A stretch of 64,000 nucleotides of DNA from an uncultured Actinomycetota bacterium (GTDB lineage Bacteria; Actinomycetota; Actinomycetes; Mycobacteriales; QHCD01). A program made the translations under genes and the position numbers. The notes under the pieces were generated by a model. That model searched no databases. It was given only the letters and a program-made list of their open reading frames with translations, and was not told the origin of the DNA. Positions 7,461 to 38,198 of this stretch are shown here, piece by piece (position 1 is the first letter of the stretch; every line of letters begins with the position of its first letter). Location of the stretch: contig CAVZJT010000006.1 in the NCBI GenBank assembly GCA_963775655.1, positions 123,940-187,939 of the forward strand. Reading direction: 5' to 3'.

Positions 7461-7481
7461 GAACGGGTCGCGGCCGCACGA

Positions 7482-7505
7482 ACGTTGACACGACCGTGGT
7501 AACGT
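7482..7505. promoter_or_regulatory. Imperfect 24-bp palindrome, candidate operator of the MerR-ahcY operon
   Basis: ACGTTgaCACGacCGTGgtAACGT; includes a TAACGT -10-like hexamer 8 nt before ATG 7514. Confidence 0.45.
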
Positions 7506-7513
7506 CCGGGGCG

Positions 7514-11482: not shown

Positions 11483-11486
11483 CTCC

Positions 11487-14869: not shown

Positions 14870-14887
14870 GGGGTGCCGTCCGTCGTC

Positions 14888-14939
14888 GTCCACAGATCCG
14901 GGCCGGCCCTTCCGGCGCGGGCGTCCGGGCGGCCACGAT
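14888..14939 (+). promoter_or_regulatory. GTCCACAG motif plus -10 CACGAT (leaderless comF promoter)
   Basis: GTCCACAG 14888-14895; CACGAT 14934-14939, 45 nt from the T of TCCACAG; GTG at 14946. Confidence 0.65.
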
Positions 14940-14945
14940 CGGGTG

Positions 14946-15668
14946 GTGCTCGCCGACCTGCTCGACCTCGTCTTTCCCGTCGGCTGCGGCGGCTGCGGGC
15001 GGCCGGGATCGGCGTGGTGCGGGTCGTGCGCCGGCCTGCTCGACCGCCCGACGGCCCACCGACCGCGCCCGAGCCCGCCGGGGCTGCCGCCGGTGTGGGT
15101 GGCCGGTCGCTACGACGGTGCGGTCCGGTCCGCGCTGCTCGCCTACAAGGAGCGCGGCCGCAGGGAGCTGGGCGGCCCGCTCGGCGCGGCACTCGCCGGC
15201 GCGGTGCGCCACGCCTGCGCCGCCGGCCAAGGCAACCCCGATCTGGTCCTCATCCCGGTGCCGTCCCGCCGGTCGGTGGCCCGGGCGCGGGGCGGCGATC
15301 ACGTACGGCGGTTGGCGGGTCACGCCGCGGCGGCGCTGGCGGTCGACGGGTCCGCCGTCGCGGTCGTCCCCGCCCTGCGGGTGCGCGGTAGGCCGCGCGA
15401 CTCGGCCGGGCTGTCGGCCGCAGCCCGCTCGATCAACCTCGCCGGCGCCCTCACCGTGACATCGGGCACCGCGGCGTGCATGGGGCAAACCGTCGTTGTC
15501 GTCGACGATCTGGTCACCACCGGCGCGACGCTCGTCGAGGCCGCGCGCGCCCTGCGCGCGGCGAAGATCGACGTGATCGCCGCCGCCGCCGTGGCCGCGA
15601 CGCCGCGTCGACCACAATCCTTGCGCGGGGACCGGCAAAGGGTGTCCGGCGAGCCGCAACCCGACTAG
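14946..15668 (+). CDS. comF: ComF family protein (Zn ribbon + phosphoribosyltransferase domain)
   Basis: LLDLVFPVGCGGC....WC.SC, YKERG, LIPVPS, VVVVDDLVTTGATL. Confidence 0.92.
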   Translation: MLADLLDLVFPVGCGGCGRPGSAWCGSCAGLLDRPTAHRPRPSPPGLPPVWVAGRYDGAVRSALLAYKERGRRELGGPLGAALAGAVRHACAAGQGNPDLVLIPVPSRRSVARARGGDHVRRLAGHAAAALAVDGSAVAVVPALRVRGRPRDSAGLSAAARSINLAGALTVTSGTAACMGQTVVVVDDLVTTGATLVEAARALRAAKIDVIAAAAVAATPRRPQSLRGDRQRVSGEPQPD

Positions 15669-15760
15669 CGTCGGAGGTGACGAAGGACACCGGAAGGGAG
15701 CCGATTCTCCGACAAGAACGCCCCGGCGTCGCCGGGGGAGATCAGTACCGGGAGGTCTGT

Positions 15761-16504
15761 GTGGACATTGTCGTGAGGGGCCGAAACGTCGAGGTTCCAG
15801 AGCATTATCGGCAGTTTGTCGCGGAGAAGCTGGGCCGGATCGAACGCTTTGACCACAAGGTGATCCGGGTCGACGTCGAACTCCAGCACGAACGCAATCC
15901 ACGCCAGTCCAGTGCGTGCCAGAACGTCCAGATCACCTGCAAATCGCGCGGCCCGGTCGTCCGCTCCGAGGCCTGCGCCCACGACTTCTACTCGGCTCTC
16001 GAGGCCGCGGTGAGCAAGCTCGAGGCACGGCTGCGCCGCGCGGCCGATCGCCGCCGGGTGCACTACGGTCACCACCGGCCACCGTCGGTGTCCGACGCCG
16101 TCGACCGGGTCGACGCGGCGCCGGCCGAGGTGCTCGACGGCACCAGCGCCGCGATGGTCGGAGCGACCGACGACGCCGCGGCGGACGGGTCCACGGACGA
16201 CGGTGCCGATGACGATGCCGTCGACGGCGACCTGGACGACGGGTCGCCCGGCCGGATCGTGCGCCAGAAGCAGCACAGCGCCGCACCGATGACCGTCGAC
16301 CAGGCCCTGTTCGCGATGGAACTCGTCGGGCACGACTTCTACCTCTTCGCCGACGCGACGACCGGCCTCGCCAGCGTCGTCTATCGCCGTAAGGGCTTCG
16401 CCTACGGCGTCATCCGGCTCACCGACAGCACGGCGACGCCGGTCAACGGCGCGGCGCCCCAGGCGGCCGTCGCAGCCGCCGAGTACGCCGTACGCTCCTC
16501 GTAG
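15761..16504 (+). CDS. hpf: Ribosome hibernation factor (long HPF/RaiA)
   Basis: VDIVVRGRNVEVP.HYR, ERNPRQ, PMTVDQAL..MELVGHDFYLF, VVYRRKG..YGVIRL; SD GGAGG. Confidence 0.95.
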   Translation: MDIVVRGRNVEVPEHYRQFVAEKLGRIERFDHKVIRVDVELQHERNPRQSSACQNVQITCKSRGPVVRSEACAHDFYSALEAAVSKLEARLRRAADRRRVHYGHHRPPSVSDAVDRVDAAPAEVLDGTSAAMVGATDDAAADGSTDDGADDDAVDGDLDDGSPGRIVRQKQHSAAPMTVDQALFAMELVGHDFYLFADATTGLASVVYRRKGFAYGVIRLTDSTATPVNGAAPQAAVAAAEYAVRSS

Positions 16505-16513
16505 CGGCCGTTC

Positions 16514-16538
16514 GGGCTACCGCCGCCCGGGGTAGCCC
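16514..16538 (+). terminator. Possible hairpin terminator after hpf
   Basis: GGGCTACC-N9-GGTAGCCC stem just after the stop; no U-tract. Confidence 0.35.
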
Positions 16539-16629
16539 ACGCGCCGTATGGGCCCGTGGGTTGCCTCGGAGCCGCAGGTCGGCGCCTACCATGGGACGAG
16601 CCGACCTCTGAGGAGTGGGAAGTCACACC

Positions 16630-19506
<2,877 letters not shown>

Positions 19507-19528
19507 CCGCGGGCGTCGGCTGGGTTGG

Positions 19529-20134
19529 TCAGCCCAGTTGTAGGGCGACGCAGCGCCACCGTCCGTCCACGCCCTCGAGCCGGGCGGCGGCGGCGCGGGC
19601 TCGCTCCCCGTGCCGGATGACCGCGCACACCTCGGCCACTCCGTCCGCGGGTTCGCTGACGTGCACGGACAGCACGGTCGGCGTGGCCGAGGCGGCACCG
19701 AGCCGGCGGGAGCGCAGGGCGCGGGACAGGTCCGCGAACACCGCCGGGCTGGTCCACTGCTGAAGTTGGGTGGCCGGCCGCCGGCCGGCCAACGCCTCGA
19801 CCGCGGCCTGCAGGAGCCGGTGGGCCACCGGTCGCGGATCGGGCAGGTCCTTGCGGCGGGTCGGCTGCGGACCCCAGAACTGCTGCCCGAGCCGGGTCCG
19901 GCGCGGGGCCGGTTCGGCGAGCGGCCGTTGCCGTGACGGCAGGTCGTCGAACGGCAGTGGCTCGGCCGCAGGGGCGAGCGCCGTACCGGACGACGCCGGA
20001 ACCGGGAGCAGCGTGAGGTGCGGTCGGTCGCCGTCGTCGAGCGGGTCGTAGGGCGGCTCGAGCGGCGGCACCGGCCGTACCCGGGGCCCGCTCGTCGGCC
20101 GCGGGCCACCCTTGGTGAACGCGGCGACCGTCAT
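19529..20134 (-). CDS. Rv3235-family protein
   Basis: PPLEPPYD, EALAGRRPATQL..WTSP.V, EP.DGVAEV, RARA.AARLE...GRWRC..L.LG; ATGA overlap with the LysM gene. Confidence 0.85.
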   Translation of the reverse strand: MTVAAFTKGGPRPTSGPRVRPVPPLEPPYDPLDDGDRPHLTLLPVPASSGTALAPAAEPLPFDDLPSRQRPLAEPAPRRTRLGQQFWGPQPTRRKDLPDPRPVAHRLLQAAVEALAGRRPATQLQQWTSPAVFADLSRALRSRRLGAASATPTVLSVHVSEPADGVAEVCAVIRHGERARAAAARLEGVDGRWRCVALQLG

Positions 20135-20817
20135 CGCTGCTCCATTCGGTCGGGTCGGTGCGGCTCGGGGGACACCAGCCGCTGGCCGGGGTGGATCAGA
20201 TCCGGATCCGGCCCGATGACGCTCCGGTTCGCGGCGTACCAGCGCTGCCACTCGGCGGCGATCTGGGCGTTGGTCGCGGCCGGGCCCAGCCGGGTGGCGG
20301 CGAGATCCCACAGGCACTCGCCGGGGGCGACGATCACCGTGCGCCGGTCCGGCGCCGGCGCCGGTGGCGGTGCCGGTCCGACCGGCCAGTCGACGTCGAA
20401 GCTGGACGAGACCGTGACGGCCCGGTCCGGACGGCCGCTCGGCACGTGCCCGACGTCGGCCGCGGCAGCCGAGGCGCCGCCGGTCGCGACGGACAGTCCG
20501 AGGGCGAGCACGGTCGCCTGGCGCAGGGTCGCCGGGACCAGTCGGCCGGACACTGTCCGCGCGATCGCCCCGAGGATTCCCGGCAGGGAGCCGGCCGCGG
20601 TGGCCGAGACCGCGAGCGCCAGCCAGCCGAGGACCAGCCAGCAGGCGACCGCGACGAGCGTGATCGCGGTTCGATCGGGTCCGACCCGGTCGAGGTAGGC
20701 CTGCGGGTGAGCCAGCATCGGTCCGAGCGTGCGCGGGTCCGGGCTCACCCACCCGAGCAGGACCACGAGGCCCGCGAGCAGTGCACCCACACCGGTCGTC
20801 CGCATCCATCGCGCCAT
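20131..20817 (-). CDS. Membrane-anchored LysM-domain protein
   Basis: N-terminal TM segments; C-terminal VIVAPGECLWDLAA..LG...W.RWYAANR.VIGPDPDLIHPGQRL. Confidence 0.85.
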   Translation of the reverse strand: MARWMRTTGVGALLAGLVVLLGWVSPDPRTLGPMLAHPQAYLDRVGPDRTAITLVAVACWLVLGWLALAVSATAAGSLPGILGAIARTVSGRLVPATLRQATVLALGLSVATGGASAAAADVGHVPSGRPDRAVTVSSSFDVDWPVGPAPPPAPAPDRRTVIVAPGECLWDLAATRLGPAATNAQIAAEWQRWYAANRSVIGPDPDLIHPGQRLVSPEPHRPDRMEQR

Positions 20818-20929
20818 AGCCGCCCACCTTCGTTTGCGTGCGTTTGCTTTGTATAGCCTCCATGTACGTGCGGTCAAGGGGAGTAGATTTTCGGTGGAGT
20901 ACGTGGACGCGGGTCGACATACTCGGGCG

Positions 20930-21850
20930 ATGCAGCGTCGGGAGATCGTGGTGCCGCGTCCGGATTGCGAGCTCGCCGGGAGCATCTGGCTCCCGGACCG
21001 GGAGCCCGAGGCGCCGCTGGTCGTCATGCATCCGGGCTCCGGCCCCAGCGACCGGGACAACGACACGCTCTTCCCGCCGATTCGGGAGCGCTTTCTCGCC
21101 GCCGGGTGGGCCGTGGCGTCGTTCGACAAGCGGGGGATCGGCGACTCGACCGGGGCGTGGACCGACGCCGACATCACGGGCCAGGCGCAGGACGCGGTGG
21201 CCTGTGTCGCGGCCTGCCGGGACGCGATCGGGGCGTCGACGGCCGGGCTGTTCGGGCACAGCCAGGGTGGCTGGGTCGTGCTGGAGGCCGCCGCCCGTGG
21301 CGCGGGGGTCGGCTTCGTCATCACCAACTCGGGGCCTGGCGTCAGCCCGCGCGAGCAGGAGCTGTTCGCCACCCGGCGGGGCTTGCAGGGCCGCAGCGCC
21401 GCCGACGCCGACGCCGCGCTCGCCGCCATCGCGGACCTGTTCGACCTCGCGGCGGCTCGGACGCCGTGGCCGCAGGTCCAGGGGTGGATGGCCGATCCGG
21501 TCCGCGCCCACGCGATGCGGACCCTGGCCGACATCGGCGCGTTCGTGCCCGCCGACGCCGCGCTGTGGGGGTTGACCGCGACCATGATCGACCACGACCC
21601 CCGCGCGGCGATGCGGCTGCTGACCGTGCCGATCCTGACCGTCTTCGGCGCGAACGACACGGCGGTGCCGGTCGAGGCCAGCGTCGACGCCTACCGGCGC
21701 CACGTCCGCCCGGACCTGCTCACCGTCGCCGTCCTCGAGGGCGGCGACCATCGACTTGAAACCCCCGACGGCACCGGCTTCGCCCCGGGCTACCTGAGCC
21801 TGCTCGCCGACTACGTCGGTGGCCGTTCGCGGCAACGGTCGCCGAGCTAG
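20930..21850 (+). CDS. Alpha/beta hydrolase
   Basis: HPGSGP.DR, FDKRGIG.STG, GHSQGG nucleophile elbow, D..VP, GDH; leaderless -10 CATACT at 20918. Confidence 0.88.
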   Translation: MQRREIVVPRPDCELAGSIWLPDREPEAPLVVMHPGSGPSDRDNDTLFPPIRERFLAAGWAVASFDKRGIGDSTGAWTDADITGQAQDAVACVAACRDAIGASTAGLFGHSQGGWVVLEAAARGAGVGFVITNSGPGVSPREQELFATRRGLQGRSAADADAALAAIADLFDLAAARTPWPQVQGWMADPVRAHAMRTLADIGAFVPADAALWGLTATMIDHDPRAAMRLLTVPILTVFGANDTAVPVEASVDAYRRHVRPDLLTVAVLEGGDHRLETPDGTGFAPGYLSLLADYVGGRSRQRSPS

Positions 21851-21858
21851 GTCTGCGG

Positions 21859-22413: not shown

Positions 22414-22653
22414 TCAGTCCTGGGGCACCGGCTCGTCGCGGCCGAGCGGATGCGTCTGGACGAAATCCCGCGTCTCGGTGTACATCCGGGCGATGTAGGA
22501 CTCGAGCTGGTCGCGCTCGACCCGCCACTGACCGCGACCCCCGATCTTGATCGCGGGCAACTCACCACTGCGCACCAGCGCGTAGGTCTGCGACGCGGAG
22601 ATGTTGAGCACCTCGGCGACGTCACTGAGGGTGAGAAACCTGTCGATGGGCAT
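22414..22653 (-). CDS. Excisionase/BldC-like helix-turn-helix DNA-binding protein
   Basis: RFLTLSDVAEVLNIS..QTYALVRSGELPAIKIGGRGQWRV; -10 CACACT at 22666-22661. Confidence 0.9.
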   Translation of the reverse strand: MPIDRFLTLSDVAEVLNISASQTYALVRSGELPAIKIGGRGQWRVERDQLESYIARMYTETRDFVQTHPLGRDEPVPQD

Positions 22654-22660
22654 CGCGACC

Positions 22661-22747
22661 AGTGTGGCACCCACGCCGGTGCTCCTGCCGTCGCCGTCCA
22701 CAGCCTGTGGACGCCGAATGGTGCCCGGGGCCGGCGTTTGGCACCAT
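22661..22747. promoter_or_regulatory. Divergent promoter pair centred on the palindrome GTCCACAG-C-CTGTGGAC
   Basis: Palindrome at 22696-22712. Each half has a CAnnnT hexamer 45 nt downstream of its T: CACCAT 22742-22747 (+) and CACACT 22666-22661 (-). Confidence 0.7.
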
Positions 22748-22815
22748 CACTCGGTCAGTCAGTGGCGGAGGCGGCACCACCGGCGTCCTCGACTCCGAAC
22801 GTGTTGGGAGAGACC

Positions 22816-23454
22816 GTGCCGGAACCACGATCGCCGGCCGCGCGCCGCCTCCGTACCCCGTCGTGGGTGAACCTCCGGATGCTGATCGGGGTGCTCCTCG
22901 TCCTCGTCGCGGTCGCCGTCGGCGCCCGGGTGGTCGCGGGTGCCGACAAGTCGGTCACGATCTGGGGCCTCTCCCACGACGTCGCCTCGGGAACGGCGCT
23001 GACCGCCGACGACCTGCGTCCGGTGCGGGTCCGGCTCTACGCCGACGCCCCGCGTTACCTGTCCACGGCCGTCTCCCCGGCGGGTCAGGTGACCAACCGC
23101 GATCTGAGTGGCGGCGACTTCCTGCCGCGGTCGGCGCTCGGTCCGGTGCCGGACGGTGTCCTGGTCCCGCTCCCGGTCGACCCGAGCGTGCTGCCGCCCG
23201 GGCTGTCCCGCGGTGACCGCATCGACGTCTACGCCGGCCCCGCATCCGCCGGCGATCCGCACGGGACGACCCGCCCGGTGCTGCAGGGAGCGCCGGTGCA
23301 GGCCGTCGCCGGCGGCCGCTCGGGCCTGTCCGCCGGGAGCGACAAGGTGCAACTGACGGTGCGGGTGCACCGCGACCAGGAGGCTGCCCTGGTCGCCGCG
23401 GTCGCCGGCAGCACCCTCTACGTCACCCAGCATGTGGGCGGGTCGGGCCGGTGA
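22816..23454 (+). CDS. SAF-domain protein (CpaB/RcpC-like)
   Basis: RRLRTPSW.N.R + TM helix, HDVASGTALTADDL, P.GL.RGDRIDVY; SD GGAG. Confidence 0.78.
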   Translation: MPEPRSPAARRLRTPSWVNLRMLIGVLLVLVAVAVGARVVAGADKSVTIWGLSHDVASGTALTADDLRPVRVRLYADAPRYLSTAVSPAGQVTNRDLSGGDFLPRSALGPVPDGVLVPLPVDPSVLPPGLSRGDRIDVYAGPASAGDPHGTTRPVLQGAPVQAVAGGRSGLSAGSDKVQLTVRVHRDQEAALVAAVAGSTLYVTQHVGGSGR

Positions 23455-24701
23455 GCGTCCCGGTCCTGACCGCGGTCACCGGCGCGCGGTGGGAGGCCGA
23501 TCTGGTCGGCGAGCTCGACCGGGCCGACTACGGCGTCTCGGTGGTCCGGCGGTGCGTCGACCTCGCCGATCTGCTCGCCGCCGCGGCGGCGGGCACCGCC
23601 CGGGCCGCACTGCTTGCGGCCGACCTGCGTCGCCTCGACCGCGACGCCGTCACCCGTCTCGCCGCGGCCGGTGTGGCCGTCGTCGGGCTGGTGAACCCCG
23701 GCGACGAGGTGGCCGAGGGCAGGCTCGTCGCGCTCGGCGTACCGGCGGTGCTGCCGGCCGACGCGGGCGCCGCCGCGATCTCGGTGGCTGTGCTGTCGGC
23801 GGTCGCCGGGCTCGGCACCGACTCCGCCCGCCGGGTGGTCTCCGATCCGCACGGCGCAGCGCCGCACCTCGGGGCCCCGGAAGTCGCATCGCCGGCGCCG
23901 GACGGCGACGGCACGGTCGTGGCCGTCTGGGGGCCGACCGGTGCGCCGGGACGCACCACCGTCGCCGTCGGGCTCGCCGACGAGGCGGCCCGGCTCGGCG
24001 TACCCACCCTGCTCGTCGACGGCGACGTCTACGGCGGGGTGGTCGCGCAGGTTCTCGGCCTGCTCGACGAGTCGCCCGGGTTGGCCGCCGCCGCCCGTCA
24101 GGCCACGGCCGGCACCCTCGACGTGACCTCGCTCGCCGATCTCGCGCTCGCCGTCGGCCCGTCGCTGCGGGTCCTCACCGGCATCGCCCGGGCCGACCGA
24201 TGGCCGGAGCTGCGGCCCGGCTCGATCGAGGCGCTGCTCGACGTCGCCCGGAGCCTGGTGCCGTTCACCGTCGTCGACTGCGGCTTCTGTGTGGAACAGG
24301 ACGAGGAGATCGCCTACGACACGATGGCGCCGCGCCGCAACGGCGCGACGATCGCGGCGCTGGCCGCCGCGGACGTGGTGCTGTGCGTCGGCGGCGCCGA
24401 CCCGGTCGGGCTCGCGCGCCTGGTGCGTTGCCTCGGCGAACTCGCCGACGTGCTTCCCGACCTGAGCCCGCGGGTGGTGGTCAACCGGGTCCGGAAGGCG
24501 GCGATCCCGGGCGATCCGCGCCGGGAGATCGGCGCCGCCCTGCAGCGCCACACCGGTGTCGGCGAACCGGTCTTCCTCCCCGCCGACGCTGCCGCGGTCG
24601 ATTCCGCGCTCGGCCTCGGCAAGACGCTGGCGGAGGTCGCTCCCCGGAGTCGGCTGCGGCGCGGTCTGGTCGACCTGGCCCGGACGCTGGCCGTGGCCTG
24701 A
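23451..24701 (+). CDS. CpaE/MinD-like P-loop ATPase with N-terminal receiver-like region
   Basis: VVAVWGPTGAPGRTT (deviant Walker A), LLVDGD.YGG, VVDCGF, VVVNRVR. Confidence 0.82.
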   Translation: MSVPVLTAVTGARWEADLVGELDRADYGVSVVRRCVDLADLLAAAAAGTARAALLAADLRRLDRDAVTRLAAAGVAVVGLVNPGDEVAEGRLVALGVPAVLPADAGAAAISVAVLSAVAGLGTDSARRVVSDPHGAAPHLGAPEVASPAPDGDGTVVAVWGPTGAPGRTTVAVGLADEAARLGVPTLLVDGDVYGGVVAQVLGLLDESPGLAAAARQATAGTLDVTSLADLALAVGPSLRVLTGIARADRWPELRPGSIEALLDVARSLVPFTVVDCGFCVEQDEEIAYDTMAPRRNGATIAALAAADVVLCVGGADPVGLARLVRCLGELADVLPDLSPRVVVNRVRKAAIPGDPRREIGAALQRHTGVGEPVFLPADAAAVDSALGLGKTLAEVAPRSRLRRGLVDLARTLAVA

Positions 24702-24792
24702 CGGTTCACCGCGTATGGCCGGGCCCGCATGTCGGCGGGTCCGACGTGGCAGCATGAAAGGGTCGGGCCCGCGCCGGGGAGGTGCTGCCGAG

Positions 24793-27640: not shown

Positions 27641-27675
27641 CTTGCCAGGTCCGTCGTCGTACCGGGGAGCCCGCC

Positions 27676-29304
<1,629 letters not shown>

Positions 29305-29350
29305 GGGTCCACCAGCTCGAAACCCTTGTGGGGCCGGCTAATCAGCCTCG

Positions 29351-31732
29351 TTACTCGATGGGGCCGATCGGACGGCGGAAGCCGTCGGCGTGCCGGCGGG
29401 CCGGTGCCCGACCGGGCGGCTGGGTGGGGGTCGGGCGGTTCGGCGGCGGGGGGATGGGGCGCACGAGTCGTTCCCGTGCGGGGACGACGACGGACTTTCC
29501 ATGGTGGACGATGGTCATCGGATTGCCGTCGCCGACCCGGTAGGTCGCCGACTCGTGGGTGACCTCGACCCGCAGACGTTGCCCGCGCAGGTAGACGTTG
29601 AACGCGAGCCGGCTCAGACCGTCCGGCAGCCGCGGCGCGAACCGGATGGTGTCGCCCTTCTGCCGCATGCCGCCCAGCCCGACGACGAGCGCGATCCACG
29701 CCCCGGCCAGCGACGCGATGTGCAGACCGTCCTGGGTGTTGTGCTCGAGGTCGTCGAGGTCGATGAGTGCCGCTTCACCGAGGTAGTCGTGTGCCAGGTC
29801 GAGATGTCCGACCTCCGCGGCCATCACCGCCTGGCAGCAGGCAGACAGCGACGAGTCGCGCACCGTCAGGCGTTCGTAGTAGGCGAAGTTGCGAGCCTTC
29901 TCTTCGTCGGTGAAGGCGTCACCGCGCAGTTGCATCGCGAGCACCAGGTCGGCCTGCTTGACCACCTGTTTGCGGTAGAGATCGAAGTAGGGGAAGTGCA
30001 GCAGCAGCGGGTACTGCTCGGGCTTCGTGTTGGCGAAGTCCCACTCCTGGTGCCGGGTGAAGCCGGCGGCCTGGGGGTGGACTCCGAGCGCTTCGTCGTA
30101 CGGGATCAGGGTCGCCTCGGCCGCGTCCCGCCACGAGGCCATTTCCTCGGCGTCGATACCGAGTTCCAATGCCTTTCCGGGGTGCCGCGCGGCGGCGTCG
30201 GCCGCGGCCCGCAGGTTCTGCTGCGCCATCAGGTTGGTGTAGATGTTGTTGTCGGCAATGGCGCTGTACTCATCGGGCCCGGTGACACCGTCGAGGCGGA
30301 ACCGGCCCTCCGGGTCGTGGTGGCCGAGAGAGCGCCAGAGCCGCGCGGTCTGCGCGAGCAGTTCAACGCCGACGGACTCTTCGAAGTCGCTGTCGGCGGT
30401 GGCGTCGACGTAACGGACGACGGCGTCGGCGATGTCGGCGCCGACGTGGAATGCCGCCGTGCCCGCCGGCCAGTATCCGGAGCACTCCTCACCGCGGATG
30501 GTGCGCCACGGGAACGCCGCTCCCTCTAACCCGAGCTGTCTGGCCCGTTCCAGCGCGAGCGGCAGGGTGGCGTGCCGCCAGCGCAGGGCGTGCGCGGCCG
30601 CGTCGGGGACGGTGAAGATGAGCACCGGCAACACATAGGTCTCGGTGTCCCAGAAGCAGTGCCCGTCGTACCCGGGACCGGTGAGACCCTTCGCGGGGAT
30701 CGACCTGCCCTCGGCCCGGGCTCCCGCCTGCAGCACGTGGAACAACGCGAACCGCACGGCCTGCTGTACCTCCGCGTCGCCGTCGAGTTCGACGTCGGAG
30801 TGGTCCCAGAACTCGTCGAGGTAGGAACGTTGCTCGGCGAGCAGCCCGTCCCAGCCGGTCTGCCGGGCGCCGACGAGGGCCGCGCCGACCTGGTCCCGCA
30901 CTCCTGGCAGCGAACGGGTGGCCGACCAGCCGTAGGTGACGAACTTGATGATCCGTAGCCGCTGGCCGGGTTGCAGCGTGGTCGTCATCGTCACCCGGCC
31001 GACGTCGGGTGAGCTCTCCGACTCGACGTGGACGTCGGCCGGCTCGGTGACGATGTGGTCCATCGCCGCCGCCATCCGCAGTTCGCTACGGGACGTGCGG
31101 TGGACCAGCTCCACCCGGGCGTTGCGCGCCCCGTGTTGTTCGGAACGTAACGGGGGAGCGAGGGCGGTGGACCGCCGTGGGTCGTTCCCGAACGTGGGCA
31201 GCTGTTCGTTGGCGACCAGCTCGGACTGCACCACGATGCGCGCCGGGCCGTCGATCGGCTCGACCTCGTAGCAGATCGCCGCGACCGACCGTTGCACGAA
31301 GGAGACCATCCGGTCGGACGTGACCCGGACCGTGCGCCCCGCGGGCGACTGCCACTCGGCCTGGCGGTGCAGCACCCCGGTCCGGAAGTCGAGAACGCGC
31401 TCGTGGCTGTGGAGTTCGCCGTACCGGATGTCGAAGGGCTCGTCGTCGACGAGGAGCCGGATCAGTTTCCCGTTGGTGACGTTGATGATCGTCTGGCCGG
31501 ACTCCGGGTAGCCGTAGCCGGCTTCGGCGTACGGGAGTCCGCGCAGCTCGAAGACGCCGTTGAGATAGGAGCCGGGCAGACCGTGCGGCTCGCCCTCGTC
31601 GAGGTTGCCGCGCCAGCCGATGTGTCCATTGGACAGGGCGAAGACCGACTCGGTCTGCGAGAGCACCTCCAGGTCGGGCCCGGTGACCCGAAGGCACCAC
31701 GGCTCGACGGCGAACCCCGGGTGGGCGATCAC
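29351..31732 (-). CDS. Glycoside hydrolase family 65 (trehalose/kojibiose phosphorylase-like)
   Basis: [44 protein letters not shown]. Confidence 0.93.
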
Positions 31733-32475
31733 GTGGGCTCGTCGAGGAGCTCGGCGAGGTCCTTGACCACGCGGTCGGCACCGTGTTCCCGCAGCGCCTC
31801 GGCCTGCCCCACCCGGTCGACGCCGATCACGATTCCGAAGTTGCCGGCCCGGCCGGCCTCGACGCCGGCGAGCGCGTCCTCGAAGACCGCCGCGTCGGCG
31901 GGTGGTACGCCGAGGGCCCGGGCACCGGCGAGGAACGTGTCCGGTGCGGGCTTCCCCTTCAGCGAGTCGCGGGTCGCGACCACGCCGTCGATCCGGGCTT
32001 CGAACAGATCTTCGATCCCCGCCGCCACCAGGACATCGCGGCAATTGGCGCTCGACGACACGACCGCCCGACGGATGCCCGCCTCCGCCACGGTCTTCAC
32101 GTAGCGCACCGAGCCGGGGAAGGCTTCAACGCCGCTCTCACGGATCTTCTTGAGCAGCAGGGCGTTCTTGCGGTTGCCCAAACCGTTGACCGTCTCCGCC
32201 GACGGTGGGTCGTCGGGATCACCTTCAGGGAGCTCGATCCCGCGTGCGGTGAGGAAGGACTGCACACCGTCGGCGCGGGGCTTTCCGTCGACGTAGCGGT
32301 CGTAGTCATCGGCGATGTCGAACGGAACGAAGGGCTCACCGGTGCGCTGCGCCCGCTCCTGCAGGTAACCGTCGAAGGTCTCCCGCCACGCCGCCGCGTG
32401 CACCTTCGCGGTCTGGGTCAGGACGCCGTCGAGGTCGAACAGGCACGCTTTCACGTGATCCGGGAGACCCAGCAC
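31729..32475 (-). CDS. Beta-phosphoglucomutase-family HAD hydrolase
   Basis: [33 protein letters not shown]; coupled to the GH65 gene. Confidence 0.92.
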
Positions 32476-32549
32476 ACAATCAAGTCTAGGCGACCGGCGA
32501 CCGTTCCTCGGTCGTTGGGCCAGCCCCGACGAGTTGGATCATGCAGCGA

Positions 32550-32888
32550 CTAGGTGAGGAGCTGCTTCGCCACCGTGAGGAGCACGGCGGAATCCTCCAG
32601 TGCCAGGAGCGAATGCGCGTCCGGCGGAACGACCAGCAGGTCGCCCTGACGGCCCTCCCACGACACCTCGCCGGAGCTCAGCCGGACCCGGCCGCGCAGG
32701 ACGTGCACGGTGGCTTCGCCCGGGTTCTCGTGTTCGGCGAGCGACATGCCCGCCTGAATGGCGATGACCGTCTGGCGCAGGTGGTGCTCGTGCCCGCCGT
32801 AGACAGTGGTCGCGCTTCTGCCGCTCGATGCCTGCGCCGCTCTCGCCGACTGTTCGCGCACCAGGGCATCGAGCGAGAGCTTCTCCAT
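32550..32888 (-). CDS. Cupin-domain protein
   Basis: GRSATTVYGGH...LRQTVIA, EHENPGEATVHVL.G, HSL.ALEDS. Confidence 0.85.
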   Translation of the reverse strand: MEKLSLDALVREQSARAAQASSGRSATTVYGGHEHHLRQTVIAIQAGMSLAEHENPGEATVHVLRGRVRLSSGEVSWEGRQGDLLVVPPDAHSLLALEDSAVLLTVAKQLLT

Positions 32889-32926
32889 GTGCGCAGCGTA
32901 GAGGAGTCGGTGTGCCGCGGACCCGG

Positions 32927-35900
32927 CTATTGCCGGAGCACACCGCCGGCCGCGACCTGGACGGCGCTGACGCGCCCGCCGACGACGAGCACGCCGCGCC
33001 CGGGCGGTGCCGGGCCGACGCCGCGCGGGAGCCGGACGCCGAGCAGGTCGCCGTCCGTGGGGCCCGGCGAGAGCAGCAAGCCGCACCGGTCGGCGCGAAC
33101 GGTCACGGCCGGCCCCCGGAAGAGCATGGCGACCTCGTCGTTGCGGCCCGCTGCGATCACGGCACGCACGCCGTCGTCGGACTTCAGTACGTCGGTGACC
33201 ACGTCGCCGGCTGCGGTGTCGGTCAGTAGCGCGATGTCGTCGACGACGGCGACGACCGGACCGGCCTCGAGCGCCTCGCCGAGCGGTCCGGCGTCACCCG
33301 GGCCGAAGACGCCGCGGACACCGGGCGTGCCGGCGAGCGCGCGCAGCGGGGACCGGCGGGCGGCGACGACCGCGATCGGAGTGCCCTGGGCGAGCAGGCT
33401 GCGCGCCATGGTGCGCAGCGCCGTCGACCGGCCGCTCCGGGCCGGGCCGGCGATGAGGAAGCCGGGGCCGTCACGGGCGAGGTCGACCCCGACGGCATCC
33501 GCGTCGTCCCCGCCCACGCCGACCAACGCCCAGAGCGGACCGGGCGCCGCCGGCACGACGATGTCGGCCGGGTCGACGCTGGCCGGGAGGGAGCGCACGC
33601 GGAACGCGCGCGGTCGGGTGGTGGGCACGCCATTCGCCGCCCTCCTCGCGATGTCGCCGAGCGCGGCGGCCTGCGCCCGCCCGGACGGGTCCGGACCCAA
33701 CAACGCCACCTGCGCCTCGACGGCACCGTCGACCACGATGATCCGCCCGTCCGGCATCGCGTCGGGGATCGCCCGGGCGGGCAAGCCGGCGAGGCCGTAG
33801 TCGAGCGAGTCGGCGCAGCTGAGCATGATCTTCGTCGGGAGCGCCGCGGAGATCCGACCGGTCAGGGCGGCCCGGTCACCGGTGACCACCACCCGCAGGC
33901 CGGCGGCGGCCCCTTCCCGCGCGAGCCGGAGCAGGGTCTCGACCGGGCGTCCCCCGTCGACCTCGTCGTAGGCCGCCTGGAATCCCGCCCAGCCGTCGAT
34001 GAGAAGCAGCAGCCACGCCAGCCGATCGGCCTCCGGGACGGCCGCCCGTTGCTCGGTCACCGACGCGAAACCGCGGGCCCCGAGCAGCGCCTGGCGCCGG
34101 TCGACCTCGCCGGCCAGTCGGGTGAGCATCCGGTCGCCGCGGTCGACGTCGCGGCGCCCGCACACCGCGCCGCAGTGCGGCAGGTCTTTGGCGGCGGACA
34201 GGGCCCCGCCCGCGCAGTCGAGTACGTAGAGGTGCAGATCCTCCGGCGTGAACCGGCTTGCCGCCGCACCGGCGATGGTGCGCAACGTCGTCGACCGGCC
34301 GCTGCGTGGGCCGCCGGCGACCAGCACCGATCCGCCCCGGGCGAGGTCGATCGCGTGGGTGCCCTGTCGCTGCTCGGCGGGATGGTCGGCCAGCGCGAAG
34401 GGCAGCACATCGCCGGTGCGGTCGCCGAGATCGGCGAGCGTCACCACGGTGGGCAGCGGCGGCAACCACGGACGGCGCGGTGGATCGGTGTGCGGGTCGA
34501 CGGCGGAGCGGATCGCCGCGACCGTCGTACGCAGATCGGTGTCGGCGTCATCGATCGGATCGGCCGGTGTGCCATCGATGTCGCCCGCCGTGGACCACGG
34601 ACTGAGGCACACGGTGGGTCGGTCCGGCCGGGTCGGTGACCCGCCGTGTCGGCCGCCGACCCGCGCCGCCTGGAACTCCACCGGCGCTCCGGTGGCCGTC
34701 CGTGCGAAACCGCGTCCGGGTCGGCTCGCCGAGATGCGGGCGGCGTCCGCGAGGTCGAGGACGTCGCGGGACTCGCTGTCGTCGGTCATGCGGAGCGCGA
34801 GCCGCAGACTCGTGTTGGCCCGGATCACCGGCGAGACCACCCCGGAGGGACGTTGGGTGGCAAGGATCAGGTGTACACCGAGCGACCGACCGCGCATCGC
34901 GATGCCGACCAGGCCGGTGACGAAGTCGGGGAGTTCGTCGACCAGGGTGGCGAACTCGTCCACGACGATCACGAGTCGGGGCAGCGGCTCGGCCGAACCT
35001 GCACGGGCGCGCAGGTAATCGTCGATGTCCTTGGCGCCCTCCGAGGAGAGCAGGCGTTCGCGACGCGCTACCTCGGCGTCGAGGCTCCGCAACGCCCGCC
35101 GGGTCAGATGGTGGTCGAGATCGGTGACCAGGCCGACGGTGTGGGGGAGGTCGGCGCAGTCCTTGAATGCCGCGCCGCCCTTGTAGTCGATGAGCACGAA
35201 CGTCATCTGGTCCGGGCCGTTGGTGATCGCGAGGCCGAGGACGACGGTCTGCAACAGCTCGGACTTCCCCGACCCGGTCGTTCCCGCGACGAGCGCATGC
35301 GGTCCGTCCGCCACCAGGTCGACGGCGTAGGCGCCCTGCGCGGATTCGCCCAGCACCACCCGGGTCGTTGGAAGGTCGGGCCGTCGATGGGCGCGGATCG
35401 CCTCTGCCGTCGGGACGTCGACGCCGAACAGGTCGAGCAGTCGGGACGCCGGTGGGGGGCCGTCCCGTGCGTCGCCGCCGCCGAGCCGCAGCGGTGCCAG
35501 CGCGCGGCACACGTCGTTCGCCCAGGCGAGGCCGGCGCCGTCGACCACGATCTGCTCGATCGGCGGGTCGTCACCCGCCACCAGCCGGAGCCGGGTGCCG
35601 ACCTCGCCGATGACCTCGACCAGCGCGCCGCATTCGGCGGGCAGCAAGCGGGCGGCACGGTCGGCGCAGATCGCGTAGATCCCGAGAGCCGGCCCCTCGT
35701 CGAGCAACCGCGCCACTCCCGGATCGTCCCGTAGCAGCGACGCACGGTCGATCAGGATCACGATGGACGGTTCGGTCCACCCGGCGACACGGGTCTGGCG
35801 GTCTCTCGATCGCGCCCCCAGCAGCGACAGCAGCTCGCCGACCCGCCGACGGCGCTGATCTCCGGTGACGCCGATCCGCCTGCCACCATCGGGTCCGGAC

Positions 35901-37207
35901 AGGTGCGGCACCCAGCGGAGCCACGACCATCGCCCGGCACTCGCGTCGTCGGCGAGCAGCACGACCTGCAGGTCCTGCGGGCCGTGCAGTGTCGCCACCT
36001 GGCCGACCAGTGCGCGGAGCAGGGCATCGACGGGTGCCGCCGGTCCGGCGATACCGAGCACTCCGCAGCTGCGCAGTCCGACGGTCACCGGCACCGACCG
36101 TGCCGTCGGCGGATCCGCCGGCGGCGGGCCGGCCCCCGATCGGCGGACCGTGATCCGGGCCGGCCGCGTGGCGGTGCCGAGCCGGAGGACCAGATGGTCG
36201 GGATCGCCGCGTCGACGTTCCCAGAGCCGCGCTCCCGGGCCACAGGCGGTGCGCCGGACGACGGCCAGGTCGGGCGCCTCCGCCCGCCGCAGCCGGGTGT
36301 CCTCGGCCACGGCGCGGGCCAGCTCGGTGTCGGCGCGGGCCAGGGCGGCGCGGTATTCGCCCCGCTCCCGGCGGCTGCTCCGGCGGAGTCCCCACCGGTC
36401 GCTCACCGCGGAACCGAGCACCATCACCGGCGAGAGCGCCGCGAACGCGAGATAGGCCGCCGACCTGAGCGCGAACGCCAATCCGACGCCGGCGAGCAGC
36501 GGGACGATCGCCGCGAACACCGGCACCTTGCCGGGACTACGTCGCACCGGCTCCTGCGGCAGCACCACCTCCACCTGCGGCGTCGACGGACACAGCCGGG
36601 GTGGCCGATGCACCGTGAGCGTGCCGTCCTCGCCGGCGCGGACCGCGGCCGGTGGATCGGTCGGTACGGCGAGAGTCAGCCCGGTCTCGCCGATGCGCAG
36701 CAGCGATCCGGTGGTGAGGGAGACGGGATCCGCGCCGACCGGTAGCTCGTCGAGCGTCGTGCCGTTGGTCGAGCCGAGATCGTGCACGGTCACGCCGTCG
36801 CCGGACACCGCGATCTCGACATGCCGGCGGGACACATCCGGGTCGGCGACGGGAACGTCGCTGCCGTCGTCGCGACCCACCACGACCCGTCCGCGCGGCA
36901 ACGGGTGCACCGCGCCGGCGTCCGGGCCGCTCACCACCCGGAGCTCGAGGATGCCGGAAACGCCTCGGTCGCGGGGGCCGGGTGCGCCGACTCCGAGCAC
37001 GCATCCCGACCGCAGGTCCGGTCCGCCCAGCGGCGTGCGCGCAGCCAGCAGGCGGGTCCCGGCGTAGAACTCCGTCGACGCGCCGACCAGCCCGGCCAGC
37101 CCGGCGAGCTCGTCGGCAATGTCCCCCAGTGCGGTGCCGGGCTCGGCGTCGACGGCGACGTCGAGCGGGGTGCGTCCGGGGGTGAGCAGGGTCAGGTCGA
37201 GATGCAC
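32927..37207 (-). CDS. FHA-domain FtsK/SpoIIIE ATPase (EccC/EssC-like type VII secretion ATPase)
   Basis: N-terminal ubiquitin-like region; FHA (VGR, SRRH, STNGT); two TM helices; three P-loops GTTGSGKS/VVDEF, GGPRSGRST/LIDGW, GPARSGRST/VVDD. Confidence 0.9.
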   Translation of the reverse strand: MHLDLTLLTPGRTPLDVAVDAEPGTALGDIADELAGLAGLVGASTEFYAGTRLLAARTPLGGPDLRSGCVLGVGAPGPRDRGVSGILELRVVSGPDAGAVHPLPRGRVVVGRDDGSDVPVADPDVSRRHVEIAVSGDGVTVHDLGSTNGTTLDELPVGADPVSLTTGSLLRIGETGLTLAVPTDPPAAVRAGEDGTLTVHRPPRLCPSTPQVEVVLPQEPVRRSPGKVPVFAAIVPLLAGVGLAFALRSAAYLAFAALSPVMVLGSAVSDRWGLRRSSRRERGEYRAALARADTELARAVAEDTRLRRAEAPDLAVVRRTACGPGARLWERRRGDPDHLVLRLGTATRPARITVRRSGAGPPPADPPTARSVPVTVGLRSCGVLGIAGPAAPVDALLRALVGQVATLHGPQDLQVVLLADDASAGRWSWLRWVPHLSGPDGGRRIGVTGDQRRRRVGELLSLLGARSRDRQTRVAGWTEPSIVILIDRASLLRDDPGVARLLDEGPALGIYAICADRAARLLPAECGALVEVIGEVGTRLRLVAGDDPPIEQIVVDGAGLAWANDVCRALAPLRLGGGDARDGPPPASRLLDLFGVDVPTAEAIRAHRRPDLPTTRVVLGESAQGAYAVDLVADGPHALVAGTTGSGKSELLQTVVLGLAITNGPDQMTFVLIDYKGGAAFKDCADLPHTVGLVTDLDHHLTRRALRSLDAEVARRERLLSSEGAKDIDDYLRARAGSAEPLPRLVIVVDEFATLVDELPDFVTGLVGIAMRGRSLGVHLILATQRPSGVVSPVIRANTSLRLALRMTDDSESRDVLDLADAARISASRPGRGFARTATGAPVEFQAARVGGRHGGSPTRPDRPTVCLSPWSTAGDIDGTPADPIDDADTDLRTTVAAIRSAVDPHTDPPRRPWLPPLPTVVTLADLGDRTGDVLPFALADHPAEQRQGTHAIDLARGGSVLVAGGPRSGRSTTLRTIAGAAASRFTPEDLHLYVLDCAGGALSAAKDLPHCGAVCGRRDVDRGDRMLTRLAGEVDRRQALLGARGFASVTEQRAAVPEADRLAWLLLLIDGWAGFQAAYDEVDGGRPVETLLRLAREGAAAGLRVVVTGDRAALTGRISAALPTKIMLSCADSLDYGLAGLPARAIPDAMPDGRIIVVDGAVEAQVALLGPDPSGRAQAAALGDIARRAANGVPTTRPRAFRVRSLPASVDPADIVVPAAPGPLWALVGVGGDDADAVGVDLARDGPGFLIAGPARSGRSTALRTMARSLLAQGTPIAVVAARRSPLRALAGTPGVRGVFGPGDAGPLGEALEAGPVVAVVDDIALLTDTAAGDVVTDVLKSDDGVRAVIAAGRNDEVAMLFRGPAVTVRADRCGLLLSPGPTDGDLLGVRLPRGVGPAPPGRGVLVVGGRVSAVQVAAGGVLRQ

Positions 37208-37213
37208 GCCGCC

Positions 37214-37265
37214 AGTCTGGCCGGATCGGCCGACCGGATGGGGGCCCGAGCGGGAGCCTGTGGAC
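37214..37265 (-). promoter_or_regulatory. GTCCACAG motif plus -10 CAGACT (leaderless FHA-FtsK promoter)
   Basis: Motif at 37265-37258; CAGACT at 37219-37214 (45 nt from the T); GTG at 37207 (57 nt), the same geometry as comF. Confidence 0.65.
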
Positions 37266-37309
37266 AGCCGAGTGCCGTAGCGTCACCGGCGGTGATCCGA
37301 GGAGGTCGG

Positions 37310-38119
37310 ATGGGTGGGGCTGGCGACAGGGGTGGCGCGAACCGCAACTTCGGCGAGGAAGGCGGGCGGCTGTCCTACGGCAGCTACCTGCGCTTGCCCG
37401 AGCTGTTGGCCCAGCAGGTGCCGGAGTCCGATCCGCCTGCGCACGACGAGCTGCTGTTCATCACCGTCCACCAGGTCTACGAACTGTGGTTCGCGCTGCT
37501 GCTGCACGAGCTCGGTTCCGCCCGCGACGCGATGCTCGCCGGCGACAGCTACCTGCCGCGGATGCGGTTGTCGCGCGCGCACGTCGTCGAACGGCTCCTC
37601 GTCGAGCAGATCGACGTGATCGAGACGATGACACCACAGGACTTCCTGGTGTTCCGGACGCTGCTTGCGCCGGCCAGCGGGTTCCAGTCGGTGCAGTTCC
37701 GGGAGATCGAATTCCTCTCCGGCGCGAAGGATGCGCGTTACGTCCACCGCCTGCGCGACGCGACACCCGCCGAGCAGTCCCGGCTCCGGCGCCGGCTGGA
37801 CGAGCCGACCCTGTGGGACGGGTTTATCGAGCTGCTGTCGGCCGCCGGGTTCGACGTCGCGTCGGAATCGGCGTGCAGTGACTCGCTGCTGGCGCTCAGC
37901 CACGACCGGTCCGCGCACGGCGCGTTGTGGGATCTCGCCGAGGCCCTCGTCGAGCACGACGAGCAGTGGGCGCGGTGGCGCGCCCGGCACGTCCTGATGG
38001 TCGAGCGGATGATCGGCGGCAAGTCGGGAACCGGTGGATCCACAGGCGCGCCTTACCTTTCAGCACGGCTCGGTCTGCGGTTCTACCCTCTGCTCTGGGA
38101 GTTGCGCTCACGGCTTTGA
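37310..38119 (+). CDS. kynA: Tryptophan 2,3-dioxygenase
   Basis: Y..YL.L..LL..Q, HDELLFI.VHQVYELWF, ASGFQS.QFREIEF, WR.RH..MVERMIG.K.GTGGS.G..YL; SD GGAGG. Confidence 0.94.
   Translation: MGGAGDRGGANRNFGEEGGRLSYGSYLRLPELLAQQVPESDPPAHDELLFITVHQVYELWFALLLHELGSARDAMLAGDSYLPRMRLSRAHVVERLLVEQIDVIETMTPQDFLVFRTLLAPASGFQSVQFREIEFLSGAKDARYVHRLRDATPAEQSRLRRRLDEPTLWDGFIELLSAAGFDVASESACSDSLLALSHDRSAHGALWDLAEALVEHDEQWARWRARHVLMVERMIGGKSGTGGSTGAPYLSARLGLRFYPLLWELRSRL
38039..38089 (+). promoter_or_regulatory. TCCACAG motif plus -10 TACCCT inside the kynA 3' end (candidate WXG100 promoter)
   Basis: TCCACAG 38039-38045; TACCCT 38084-38089 (45 nt); the kynA codons here are locally A/T-ending. Confidence 0.55.
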
Positions 38120-38198
38120 GACACCACATCGAGGTCCGCGCGACCGTCCATTTCCCTGGATCGCCCGCGCCGCGGGCACAAAGACGGAGGTTGTCCCG

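Follow-up and report, generated by a model that had tools for sequence, protein, structure and literature searches.

The window analysed here is a 64,000-nucleotide (nt) stretch of a 4.2 Mb actinobacterial genome (15 contigs, approximately 70% G+C; G000 in our numbering, in which other genomes also carry G numbers and the contigs of this one C numbers). It holds a short DNA box with the core TCCACAG upstream of the competence gene comF, between divergent genes for an HTH_17 protein and a SAF-like protein, and upstream of a gene for an EssC-like type VII secretion ATPase. The sequence context of this box, here and in other genomes, indicates that it marks a conserved natural-transformation regulon in this class of Actinobacteria. 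The window features concerned are the following.

14886 to 14895, + strand: comF box TCGTCCACAG, a 9-mer with one mismatch to TTGTCCACA (which we take to be the DnaA-box consensus), plus G
14934 to 14939, + strand: −10-like hexamer CACGAT of comF, 45 nt past the box T; predicted from its match to the consensus
14943 to 15668, + strand: comF (ComF family / phosphoribosyltransferase); Pfam Pribosyltran and DZR_2, NCBIfam comF subfamily at E 3e-13, under the curated cut-off
22414 to 22653, − strand: HTH_17 / excisionase-family DNA-binding protein of 79 amino acids (aa); Pfam HTH_17 at E 8e-15, TIGR01764
22661 to 22666, − strand: −10-like hexamer CACACT of the HTH_17 gene; CACACT or CAGACT is kept in relatives
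22696 to 22712, no strand: palindromic double box GTCCACAG-C-CTGTGGAC between the divergent HTH_17 and SAF-like genes
22742 to 22747, + strand: −10-like hexamer CACCAT of the SAF-like operon, a predicted consensus match
22762 to 23454, + strand: SAF-like membrane protein; no Pfam family, weak FlgA C-terminal match at E 6e-4
23451 to 24701, + strand: CpaE/TadZ-like ParA-family ATPase; weak CbiA/ParA matches and a weak Ssd/CpaE_hom_Actino match
32927 to 37207, − strand: FHA-FtsK/SpoIIIE protein of 1426 aa, an EssC/EccC-like type VII secretion ATPase, probably leaderless; Pfam FtsK_SpoIIIE and FHA
37214 to 37219, − strand: −10-like hexamer CAGACT of the EssC-like gene, kept in G003, G002, G008 and G006
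37258 to 37267, − strand: box CTGTCCACAG of the EssC-like gene; boxes are kept in 13 of 17 relatives, some reading GTTATCCACAG
37310 to 38119, + strand: tryptophan 2,3-dioxygenase gene kynA (Pfam Trp_dioxygenase, E 1e-52), divergent from the EssC-like gene and upstream of WXG100
38039 to 38045, + strand: TCCACAG inside the kynA coding sequence (codons G-S-T-G), a doubtful regulatory site
38199 to 38495, + strand: WXG100 family protein of 98 aa; Pfam WXG100 at E 2e-17, TIGR03930 above its cut-off

The comF box begins 17 nt past the lpqB stop codon, so that comF would have its own promoter directly 3′ of lpqB, and since its start is a GTG at 14943 or 14946, the transcript is probably leaderless. 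In an anchored print-out, the start codons of comF, the HTH_17 gene and the EssC-like gene lie 11–13 nt past the first base of the hexamer. The gene order around comF (mtrA-mtrB-lpqB-comF-hpf-secA, 10805 to 19506) is the usual one for actinobacteria; comF and hpf were family-scanned, and the other names come from gene order and earlier labels. In-frame stop codons are found in the comF matches of three relatives (two TAA in G008, one TGA in G022 and one TAA in G028), in which the gene, to judge from these codons, may be decaying.

At the divergent locus the start of the SAF-like gene is uncertain: its frame opens with TTG at 22738, and the first start past the −10 hexamer is GTG at 22762. The CACCAT word also stands 36 nt past the palindrome arm in G003 and G002, as read by eye from printed sequences. 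This operon (22738 to 24701) had been labelled Tad-like, a label that has to be given up: TadA, TadB, TadC and Flp genes are all absent from it, and just the SAF-like gene and the weakly ParA/CpaE-like gene are present, followed by genes of lipid-metabolism type (WS/DGAT, patatin, DUF6912 and aldehyde dehydrogenase).

The third locus (32927 to 38495) combines an EssC/EccC-type FtsK ATPase with a WXG100 substrate, the pair expected of a type VII system. The 1426-aa protein matches NCBIfam EssC with E 1e-144, under the cut-off, and EccCb with 349.9 bits against a cut-off of 346.55. The neighbouring open reading frames (ORFs) have no family (38523 to 38933) or an unrelated one (cupin at 32550 to 32888, DUF6758 at 39191 to 39598) in a general family scan, in which no search was aimed at further type VII membrane components.

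The original prediction had proposed, from the window alone, that five promoters carry TCCACAG exactly 45 nt before a YANNNT hexamer. Compared with 100 shuffles, TCCACAG itself occurs 11 times in the window (shuffle mean 5.9, with 11 or more in 4 of 100 shuffles), and our scan returned the same 11 coordinates as had been listed. The combination TCCACAG-N38-YANNNT is found at all five proposed sites (14889+, 22697+, 22711−, 37264− and 38039+), for which the shuffle mean is 0.07 and none of the 100 shuffles reached five. The hexamers and start codons noted for them were confirmed as well (comF GTG at +54 and +57, HTH_17 ATG at +58, EssC-like GTG at +57). What changes is their independence and, for one of them, their meaning. 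The sites at 22697 and 22711 together form a single palindrome, one arm each, which leaves four independent loci rather than five, and the site at 38039 lies together with its TACCCT hexamer in the last 80 bases of kynA, while WXG100 begins at 38199. In G019 the G-S-T-G protein motif of kynA is kept without the TCCACAG word. The remaining six hits, which had been set aside for want of a hexamer, comprise five inside rough gene calls and one intergenic site at 56140; the rough gene caller is a guide only, covering approximately 80% of the genome and missing comF, kynA and the pilin gene.

The strength of the case comes from orthologous promoters, which we have compared in 30 relatives from 19 families of the same order by counting TCCACA, in both orientations, over the 200 nt that precede the start. 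At least one box was found upstream of yraN in 27 of 27 relatives (two or more in 18), of comF in 20 of 25 (10), of the HTH_17 gene in 16 of 23 (7) and of the EssC-like gene in 13 of 17 (4), against 29 of 274 control windows at the same loci with at least one box and 1 of 274 with two or more. Boxes also precede at least 9 of 16 SSB-like orthologues, for which the print-outs are poorly anchored. Because the relatives are kin, these counts overstate independence; G015, flagged as unpublished, contributes one row to each count, and no claim is made on it alone.

In the comEA promoters, an exact box pair is present in 20 of 26 relatives, with a spacing of 19 nt in 15, 18 nt in 4 and 20 nt in 1. 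A TANNNT hexamer, mostly TAGCGT, follows in 19 of these 20 at an offset of 44 (12 promoters), 45 (5) or 46 nt (2), with no other offset within 20–79, and a GTG or ATG lies 6–8 nt past the hexamer. The spacing is thus 44–46 nt across species rather than exactly 45. A genome-wide spacing peak, which had been offered as a check, is missing from this genome when the loose YANNNT is used and emerges when promoters are compared across species. As the signal appears only across species and not in the single-genome count, cross-species promoters are needed to see it.

Listing the sites in the whole genome with a hexamer at offset 44–46 and identifying the genes behind them, we found the same box geometry before comEA-comEC-holA, yraN-comM-dprA, a 158-aa protein with a weak SSB match, and recA. 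At these loci the box mostly comes as two direct copies with a 19-nt spacing, 44–45 nt before the −10. A box partner 17–23 nt upstream accompanies 16 of 1120 TCCACA sites; 11 of these lie in non-coding-like DNA, including the four promoters just named and two of the Tad locus (the non-coding-like test flags 23% of random positions and is likewise a guide only). The true Tad locus lies on contig C3, with T2SSE, two T2SSF, DUF4244 and TadE-like genes, and box pairs stand there before the operon of a CpaE/Ssd-like gene with tadA-tadB-tadC and before the DUF4244 Flp-type pilin gene, which is followed by the TadE-like gene. Neither the tad operon promoter nor the DUF4244 pilin promoter has a −10 hexamer at offset 43–46. 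The core of the original prediction, namely that one shared upstream element joins competence, Tad-related and type VII-like genes, is therefore supported: in this genome boxes precede recA, the operons comEA-comEC and yraN-comM-dprA, and both the tad operon and the Flp-type pilin gene, and they are conserved at the orthologues in relatives, as are those of comF and the EssC-like gene. This agrees with the enrichment near com, dprA and tad genes that had been put forward for checking.

Two further observations concern these promoters. The first gene of the true Tad operon, the CpaE/Ssd-like one (locus L169, C3:158000-170755, 6673 to 7795), is split into two overlapping frames (6673 to 7044 and approximately 6833 to 7795), which may point to a pseudogene, a frameshift or faulty assembly. 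In five box-pair promoters of this genome (approximately C5:538200-538215, C7:434565-434580, C2:318045-318060, C3:164560-164575 and C3:169690-169705) the word TGTCAA, the reverse complement of TTGACA, lies 13–14 nt upstream of the distal box. Some relatives (G008, G006 and G009), most of them from the family of this genome, have it in a comEA or comF promoter as well, and it could be the site of a second protein or a divergent −35 element.

The recA promoter (C7:541400-541530) is composite: a PafBC-type TTGTCGGAG-N8-TAGCGT is combined with a TCGAAC-N4-GTTCG box of LexA type and with TCCCCAG and TCCACAG, two DnaA-like boxes at a spacing of 19 nt. Elements of these kinds also meet at other places in the genome. 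A perfect GTTGTCCACAG stands 44–45 nt before TAGAAT at C1:312397 and C2:464584, directly followed by a LexA-type TCGAAC-N4-GTTCGA, and the gene behind the C1 site is a DUF222 gene (Pfam). The intergenic window site at 56140 (CTGTGGA on the + strand) lies 66 nt before the PafBC-type TGTCGGAC-N8-TAGGTT of a leaderless gene for a 123-aa protein starting at 56220, which is probably a DNA-damage gene.

Beyond the order, the strict pattern TCCACA-N13/14-TCCACAG-N37/38-TAGCGT was searched over named genomes, one per species, and gave at least 120 stretches, 80 of which were listed. Among the matches listed, all come from Actinomycetota, including Pseudonocardia, Amycolatopsis, Actinophytocola, Geodermatophilus, Modestobacter, Blastococcus, Rhodococcus, Nocardia, Micromonospora and metagenome-assembled genomes (MAGs) named ‘Frankiales’, among others. 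The gene behind the pattern encodes ComEA in 22 and RecA in 24 of these 80; among the remaining 34, approximately 13 encode, by eye, leaderless proteins of 200–225 aa, and all 6 of those tested have SAF domains, with RcpC/CpaB above the Pfam cut-off in 2. No match was obtained by tblastn of the SAF-like, CpaE-like and HTH_17 proteins of the window against the named SAF loci, and the proteins of those loci, by their SAF/RcpC domains, would be analogous neighbours of the window SAF-like gene rather than demonstrated orthologues. The RecA protein of this genome is 87–90% identical to that of such ‘Frankiales’ and Mycobacteriales MAGs, which gives a rough placement of the organism.

With the final TAGCGT relaxed to TANNNT, 401 genomes of the class were scanned, and there were 47 matches in 32 of them (one match being in the unpublished G568), and none for a reversed control pattern. 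At the 30 loci examined, the downstream genes encode RecA (11), ComEA (4, one of them in this genome), ComEC (2) and YraN (1). A PafBC-type −26 element (TGTCGG) lies behind the two boxes in the 24 recA promoters among the named-genome matches listed and in most of the 11 from the class scan. The pattern is very strict, and therefore its absence from a family means little. A looser, phylum-wide scan for box pairs was abandoned as too unspecific, as it returned, in another family, also same-spaced pairs close to the origin-like starts of contigs (one row being the unpublished G268). In one family of another order, with genomes of 7–10 Mb, a near-identical pair TCCACAGTTTTCGACCAAGATCCACA is present in 7 of 8 genomes of one genus.

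The regulon so delineated comprises comEA-comEC, comF, yraN-comM-dprA, the SSB-like gene, recA, the Tad operon and the Flp-type pilin gene, together with the SAF/RcpC-like and CpaE-like genes, the HTH_17 gene, the EssC-like ATPase gene and, in some lineages, WXG100. As in a late-com regulon, one shared cis-element stands upstream of the uptake and processing operons, here, in the relatives and in other orders. For WXG100, whose window site lies in coding sequence, intergenic boxes are seen in 5 of the 14 relatives with a match (G015, G018, G027, G009 and G004), in G015 as TCCACAG-N38-TAACGT.

Two promoter types can be told apart. The com-type promoters have one or, more often, two direct boxes 19 nt (two helical turns) apart and reading towards the gene, with the proximal T 44–46 nt before a TANNNT −10 hexamer and no recognisable −35; most are predicted to be leaderless. 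If transcription starts approximately 7 nt past the −10, the boxes lie near −57/−51 and −76/−70. Some EssC-like promoters, those of HTH_17 genes and, in this genus, those of the SAF-like gene have an inverted box approximately 8–12 nt closer. In the HTH_17 promoters of 14 of 24 genomes the proximal arm reads CTGTGGA, 33–38 nt before the −10 (CACACT or CAGACT; at 36 in 8 of the 14), and the second arm is 9–44 nt off or missing in relatives; the palindrome is perfect in this genome, and it is because it is so tight that offset 45 appears at its HTH_17 and SAF-like promoters. The EssC-like promoters occur in both forms, with TCCACAG 45–46 nt before CAGACT or GACACT (G008, G006, G005 and the genus of this genome) or an inverted CTGTGGA 35–36 nt before the −10 (G004, G010 and G028), and often carry an inverted pair CTGTGGATAA...TTATCCACAG. 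Taken together, it is very probable that the box is a real and conserved element of a competence-type regulon.

What reads the box is less clear, and its consensus offers the best lead. The extended box has 11 bases, G-Y-Y-R-T-CCACA-G, with TCCACAG as its core. Among 93 CCACA boxes upstream of yraN and comF, the flanking preferences are G 52, Y 83, Y 78, R 80 and T 80 before CCACA and G 66 after it, and 82 of the 93 are oriented towards the gene. In 29 of the genomes concerned the dnaA-dnaN spacers, 9.8 kb in total, contain 126 CCACA boxes, which presumably are the DnaA boxes of the origin, and these show G 63, Y 94, Y 103, R 90 and T 93 before CCACA and G 67 after it. The com boxes would thus qualify as DnaA boxes, having the 9-mer TT(A/G)TCCACA and the flank preferences of the origin type; in position 2 they have C about as often as T, and therefore many single boxes have 1–2 mismatches to the strict 9-mer. 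Because the com-box consensus is that of the dnaA-dnaN spacer boxes, DnaA, which the original prediction had named among its candidates, is now the leading one. We regard it as roughly an even question whether DnaA is the binder, and the full statement, a conserved competence regulon box read by DnaA, stands no higher when taken as a whole.

Clusters of such boxes are not confined to the regulon. Two boxes 20 nt apart lie in the region upstream of dnaA itself. At C1:107570-107615, approximately 50 kb from dnaA, there are three to four boxes (TCCACC, CCCACAG, TCCACAG and TCCACAG) approximately 12–13 nt apart with a TACGGT at offset 45, which may be a DnaA-box cluster of another kind. Four CCACA boxes at C6:225330-225420, 37 kb past the window end, lie upstream of a DUF5679 zinc-ribbon gene (82 aa) without promoter-type spacing.

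In the mechanism that we propose, DnaA would bind the boxes and touch RNA polymerase from a fixed face (approximately −54 and −73) at promoters lacking a −35 element, thereby activating them, and how strongly DNA-uptake and recombination genes are expressed would depend on the replication initiator and its state. The HTH_17/SAF/CpaE module, which the box itself controls, would not be the reader but would have a modulating part, and recA would combine the boxes with PafBC and LexA control. A bolder version is somewhat more doubtful and is offered tentatively: DnaA itself would be the master regulator of natural competence in Actinomycetes, acting through paired boxes on a fixed face of −35-less leaderless promoters to turn on jointly the Tad pilus, ComEA/ComEC/ComF, DprA/ComM/YraN, an SSB, RecA and an EssC/WXG100 module, and tying uptake and recombination to initiation status, with an essential HTH_17 protein antagonising it at the same boxes.

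Several points weigh against the full statement. In this genome 399 TCCACAG sites exist, 11 of which have a YANNNT at offset 45, and offsets 19, 64 and 109 also give 11 each, so that the single-genome histogram has no unique peak at 45; with only one genome and a loose hexamer, such a peak could not be demonstrated. In G020, the sole member examined of a large family, only single boxes are present and HTH_17 was not found, and in other orders HTH_17 is 71–79% identical in 4 of the 5 genomes that use the boxes. The com boxes are spaced by 19 nt, against arrays of approximately 10 nt in the origin spacers, and the two box orientations with their different offsets (44–46 and 35–36) need explaining. 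Activation is suggested by position only. Likeness to a DnaA box is no proof of DnaA binding, as evolution could have produced a dedicated factor for the same word; in Bacillus, DnaA boxes and Spo0A boxes overlap. Finally, Micrococcus luteus genetics points to the HTH_17/SAF locus, and not to dnaA, as setting comEA/EC promoter activity (PMC8467076), though dnaA, being probably essential, may be missed in such a screen.

The main rival to DnaA as the box binder is the HTH_17 protein (22414 to 22653), which, acting as a repressor or switch, would read the box at its own divergent promoter and at those of com, tad and recA genes, the likeness to a DnaA box being convergence or deliberate competition with DnaA. 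Its gene adjoins the palindromic double box, its own promoter keeps a box in 14 of 24 genomes, and with orthologues in 23 of 30 relatives at 57–96% identity, and 71–79% in other orders, it is conserved like a global regulator. As described in part of PMC8467076, ethyl methanesulfonate hits in the HTH_17 ORF and its 5′ untranslated region form the densest cluster of single-nucleotide polymorphisms among M. luteus mutants with de-regulated comEA/EC-lacZ, and the R64W change in HTH_17 alone restored the mutant phenotype. BldC, a relative of the HTH_17 fold, binds direct repeats head to tail (PMC5859096, in the part available). Its motif, however, is AATTxxxx(C) with a 9–10 bp period in the same source, unrelated to the box, and a BldC-type motif for HTH_17 was rejected on this account. 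Moreover, the boxes do not occur only where HTH_17 was found: box pairs precede yraN in G016, G017 and G022, and comEA too in the latter two, whereas the search for HTH_17 in these three genomes gave no orthologue, just a 35–39% identical paralogue that is itself present in 28 of 31 genomes. HTH_17 and CpaE-like orthologues were not found in G016, G017, G020 and G022, which are draft assemblies 95–100% complete. The CpaE-like gene has orthologues in 21 of 30 relatives, 19 of them also with HTH_17, one cut off at a contig end and one (G021) beside a second HTH_17 copy. The arm spacing at the HTH_17 promoter, varying over 9–44 nt, would be unusual for a dimer operator, and the com box shares all five flank preferences with the origin boxes. 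We consider it unlikely that HTH_17 is the reader.

It is similarly doubtful that another factor common to all these genomes, either a transcription factor or an Actinobacteria-specific RNA-polymerase-associated protein, reads the box while DnaA and HTH_17 act indirectly. A strictly constant spacing to the −10 and a direct repeat, here of 19 nt, are what one expects of a dedicated class-I-type activator, the TGTCAA word upstream of the distal box suggests that more than one protein may assemble there, and we found no literature on DnaA or any other regulon with these genes. Such a factor would nevertheless have to be a second protein with the 11-base preference of the origin boxes, and no candidate gene for it is at hand. 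MtrA, encoded next to comF, was rejected, as its motif consists of 9-nt GTnACc-type direct repeats spaced by 2 nt (PMC6265350), versus TCCACAG with a 19-nt period. PafBC / RecA-NDp (TGTCRgtg 8 nt before TAnnnT) was rejected too: its −26 element is missing from the five window promoters and from the com promoters, being confined to recA and the gene that starts at 56220.

That the boxes are DnaA boxes with a replication role, for example initiator titration, or chance clusters, without any control of transcription, is very improbable: although clusters without promoter geometry exist (the four boxes at C6:225417 and the three to four at C1:107608) and same-spaced pairs lie near the origin-like contig starts of another family, the −10 distance is fixed within 3 nt in 19 of 20 comEA promoters, the boxes upstream of yraN and comF mostly face the gene, the downstream genes form one functional set across orders, and hardly anything turns up in the control windows or with the reversed control pattern.

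Much the same gene set has been seen in another way. In Bifidobacterium pseudocatenulatum under transformation-promoting conditions, RNA-seq showed a Tad cluster, comEA-comEC and dprA-comM-yraN, one gene each for SSB and WXG100, and three others to be co-induced more than 10-fold, and the Tad, comEA-comEC and dprA-comM-yraN clusters are essential for transformation (PMC13660472, as far as its available text goes). By comparison of gene lists, this independent set matches the set predicted from the box, including the surprising WXG100. The text of PMC13660472 gives no element or regulator, and the words promoter, DnaA and regulon are absent from it, its Table S3 being outside our scope. In the literature, with supplementary lists and figures (Table S3 of PMC13660472, the figures of PMC8467076) outside our scope, no description of the cis-element or of a link between DnaA and competence was found. 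Calling the regulon undescribed, as the original prediction did, thus holds for its cis-element and not for its gene membership: new here is the DnaA-box-like control element, while much the same co-induced gene set was already known.

Natural transformation in Actinobacteria has been known for decades and was shown in 2026 to reshape the genomes of gut bifidobacteria. A conserved element with a fixed promoter geometry is a candidate for the long-sought competence control element and makes the question directly experimental. It also allows the competence regulon to be predicted in any genome of the class, including its unexpected type VII-like branch. If DnaA reads the box, replication initiation and horizontal gene transfer would be linked in a new way, and there would be a handle to make hard-to-transform industrial actinobacteria transformable.

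One of the closest known systems is the Mlut_14660/14650/14640 locus of M. luteus, where, as here, an HTH_17 gene diverges from an operon of SAF-like and TadZ/CpaE-like genes; by family and gene arrangement the window HTH_17 gene is the counterpart of Mlut_14660, and the SAF-like gene holds the position of Mlut_14650. According to the portion of PMC8467076 available, this locus affects comEA/EC promoter activity and transformation, Mlut_14650 (SAF/RcpC-like), which adjoins Mlut_14660, is needed for transformation, no DNA element is defined and no binding is shown, and the authors state that the binding of Mlut_14660 to the comEA/EC promoter is still to be verified. That report is the only literature match to the tag Mlut_14660. 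The M. luteus operon continues with a PAS histidine kinase gene, unlike the window operon, which continues with lipid-metabolism genes. Competence in M. luteus follows amino-acid limitation and (p)ppGpp, and no ComK or CodY homologue was identified there, as stated in the accessible part of PMC6667448. The same part names the regulators of streptococcal, Bacillus and gammaproteobacterial competence and gives no known ComK, ComX or Sxy homologue in Actinobacteria (PMC6667448).

In its logic the regulon described here resembles those of the cin-box, K-box and CRP-S elements, in which likewise one short element, shared across species, precedes comEA/comEC, comF, dprA, comM, ssb, recA and pilus genes. 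The cin-box is read by sigma-X (ComX) in streptococci, the K-boxes by ComK in Bacillus, and CRP-S by CRP with Sxy/TfoX in Gammaproteobacteria, and ComK also uses paired boxes spaced by whole helical turns. In contrast to these elements, the box here is neither a −10/−35 variant nor AT-rich, standing 44–46 nt before a normal TANNNT of mostly leaderless genes, and its set includes the type VII-like genes EssC-like and WXG100.

DnaA is established as a transcription factor at the dnaA and nrd promoters of Escherichia coli, at sda of Bacillus subtilis and at gcrA/ftsZ of Caulobacter. With such promoters the box shares the 9-mer, flanked on both sides by G just like the origin boxes here, and if DnaA reads it, the state of replication would be linked to a developmental decision, as with sda. 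Unlike the known targets, competence, Tad and recA genes are not among the DnaA targets in the literature that we found, and we know of no described DnaA counterpart to the 19-nt spacing with its fixed −10 offset. A further common point is the preference for paired sites, described in PMC11317965 together with the role of DnaA as a regulator.

Among the DNA-damage promoters compared, the recA promoter has the −26 element of PafBC promoters, whereas the com, tad, HTH_17 and EssC-like promoters lack it. The PafBC / RecA-NDp motif is tTGTCRgtg-N8-TAnnnT, and the boxes lie approximately 25–50 nt further upstream than its −26 element, and would therefore form a separate layer of control.

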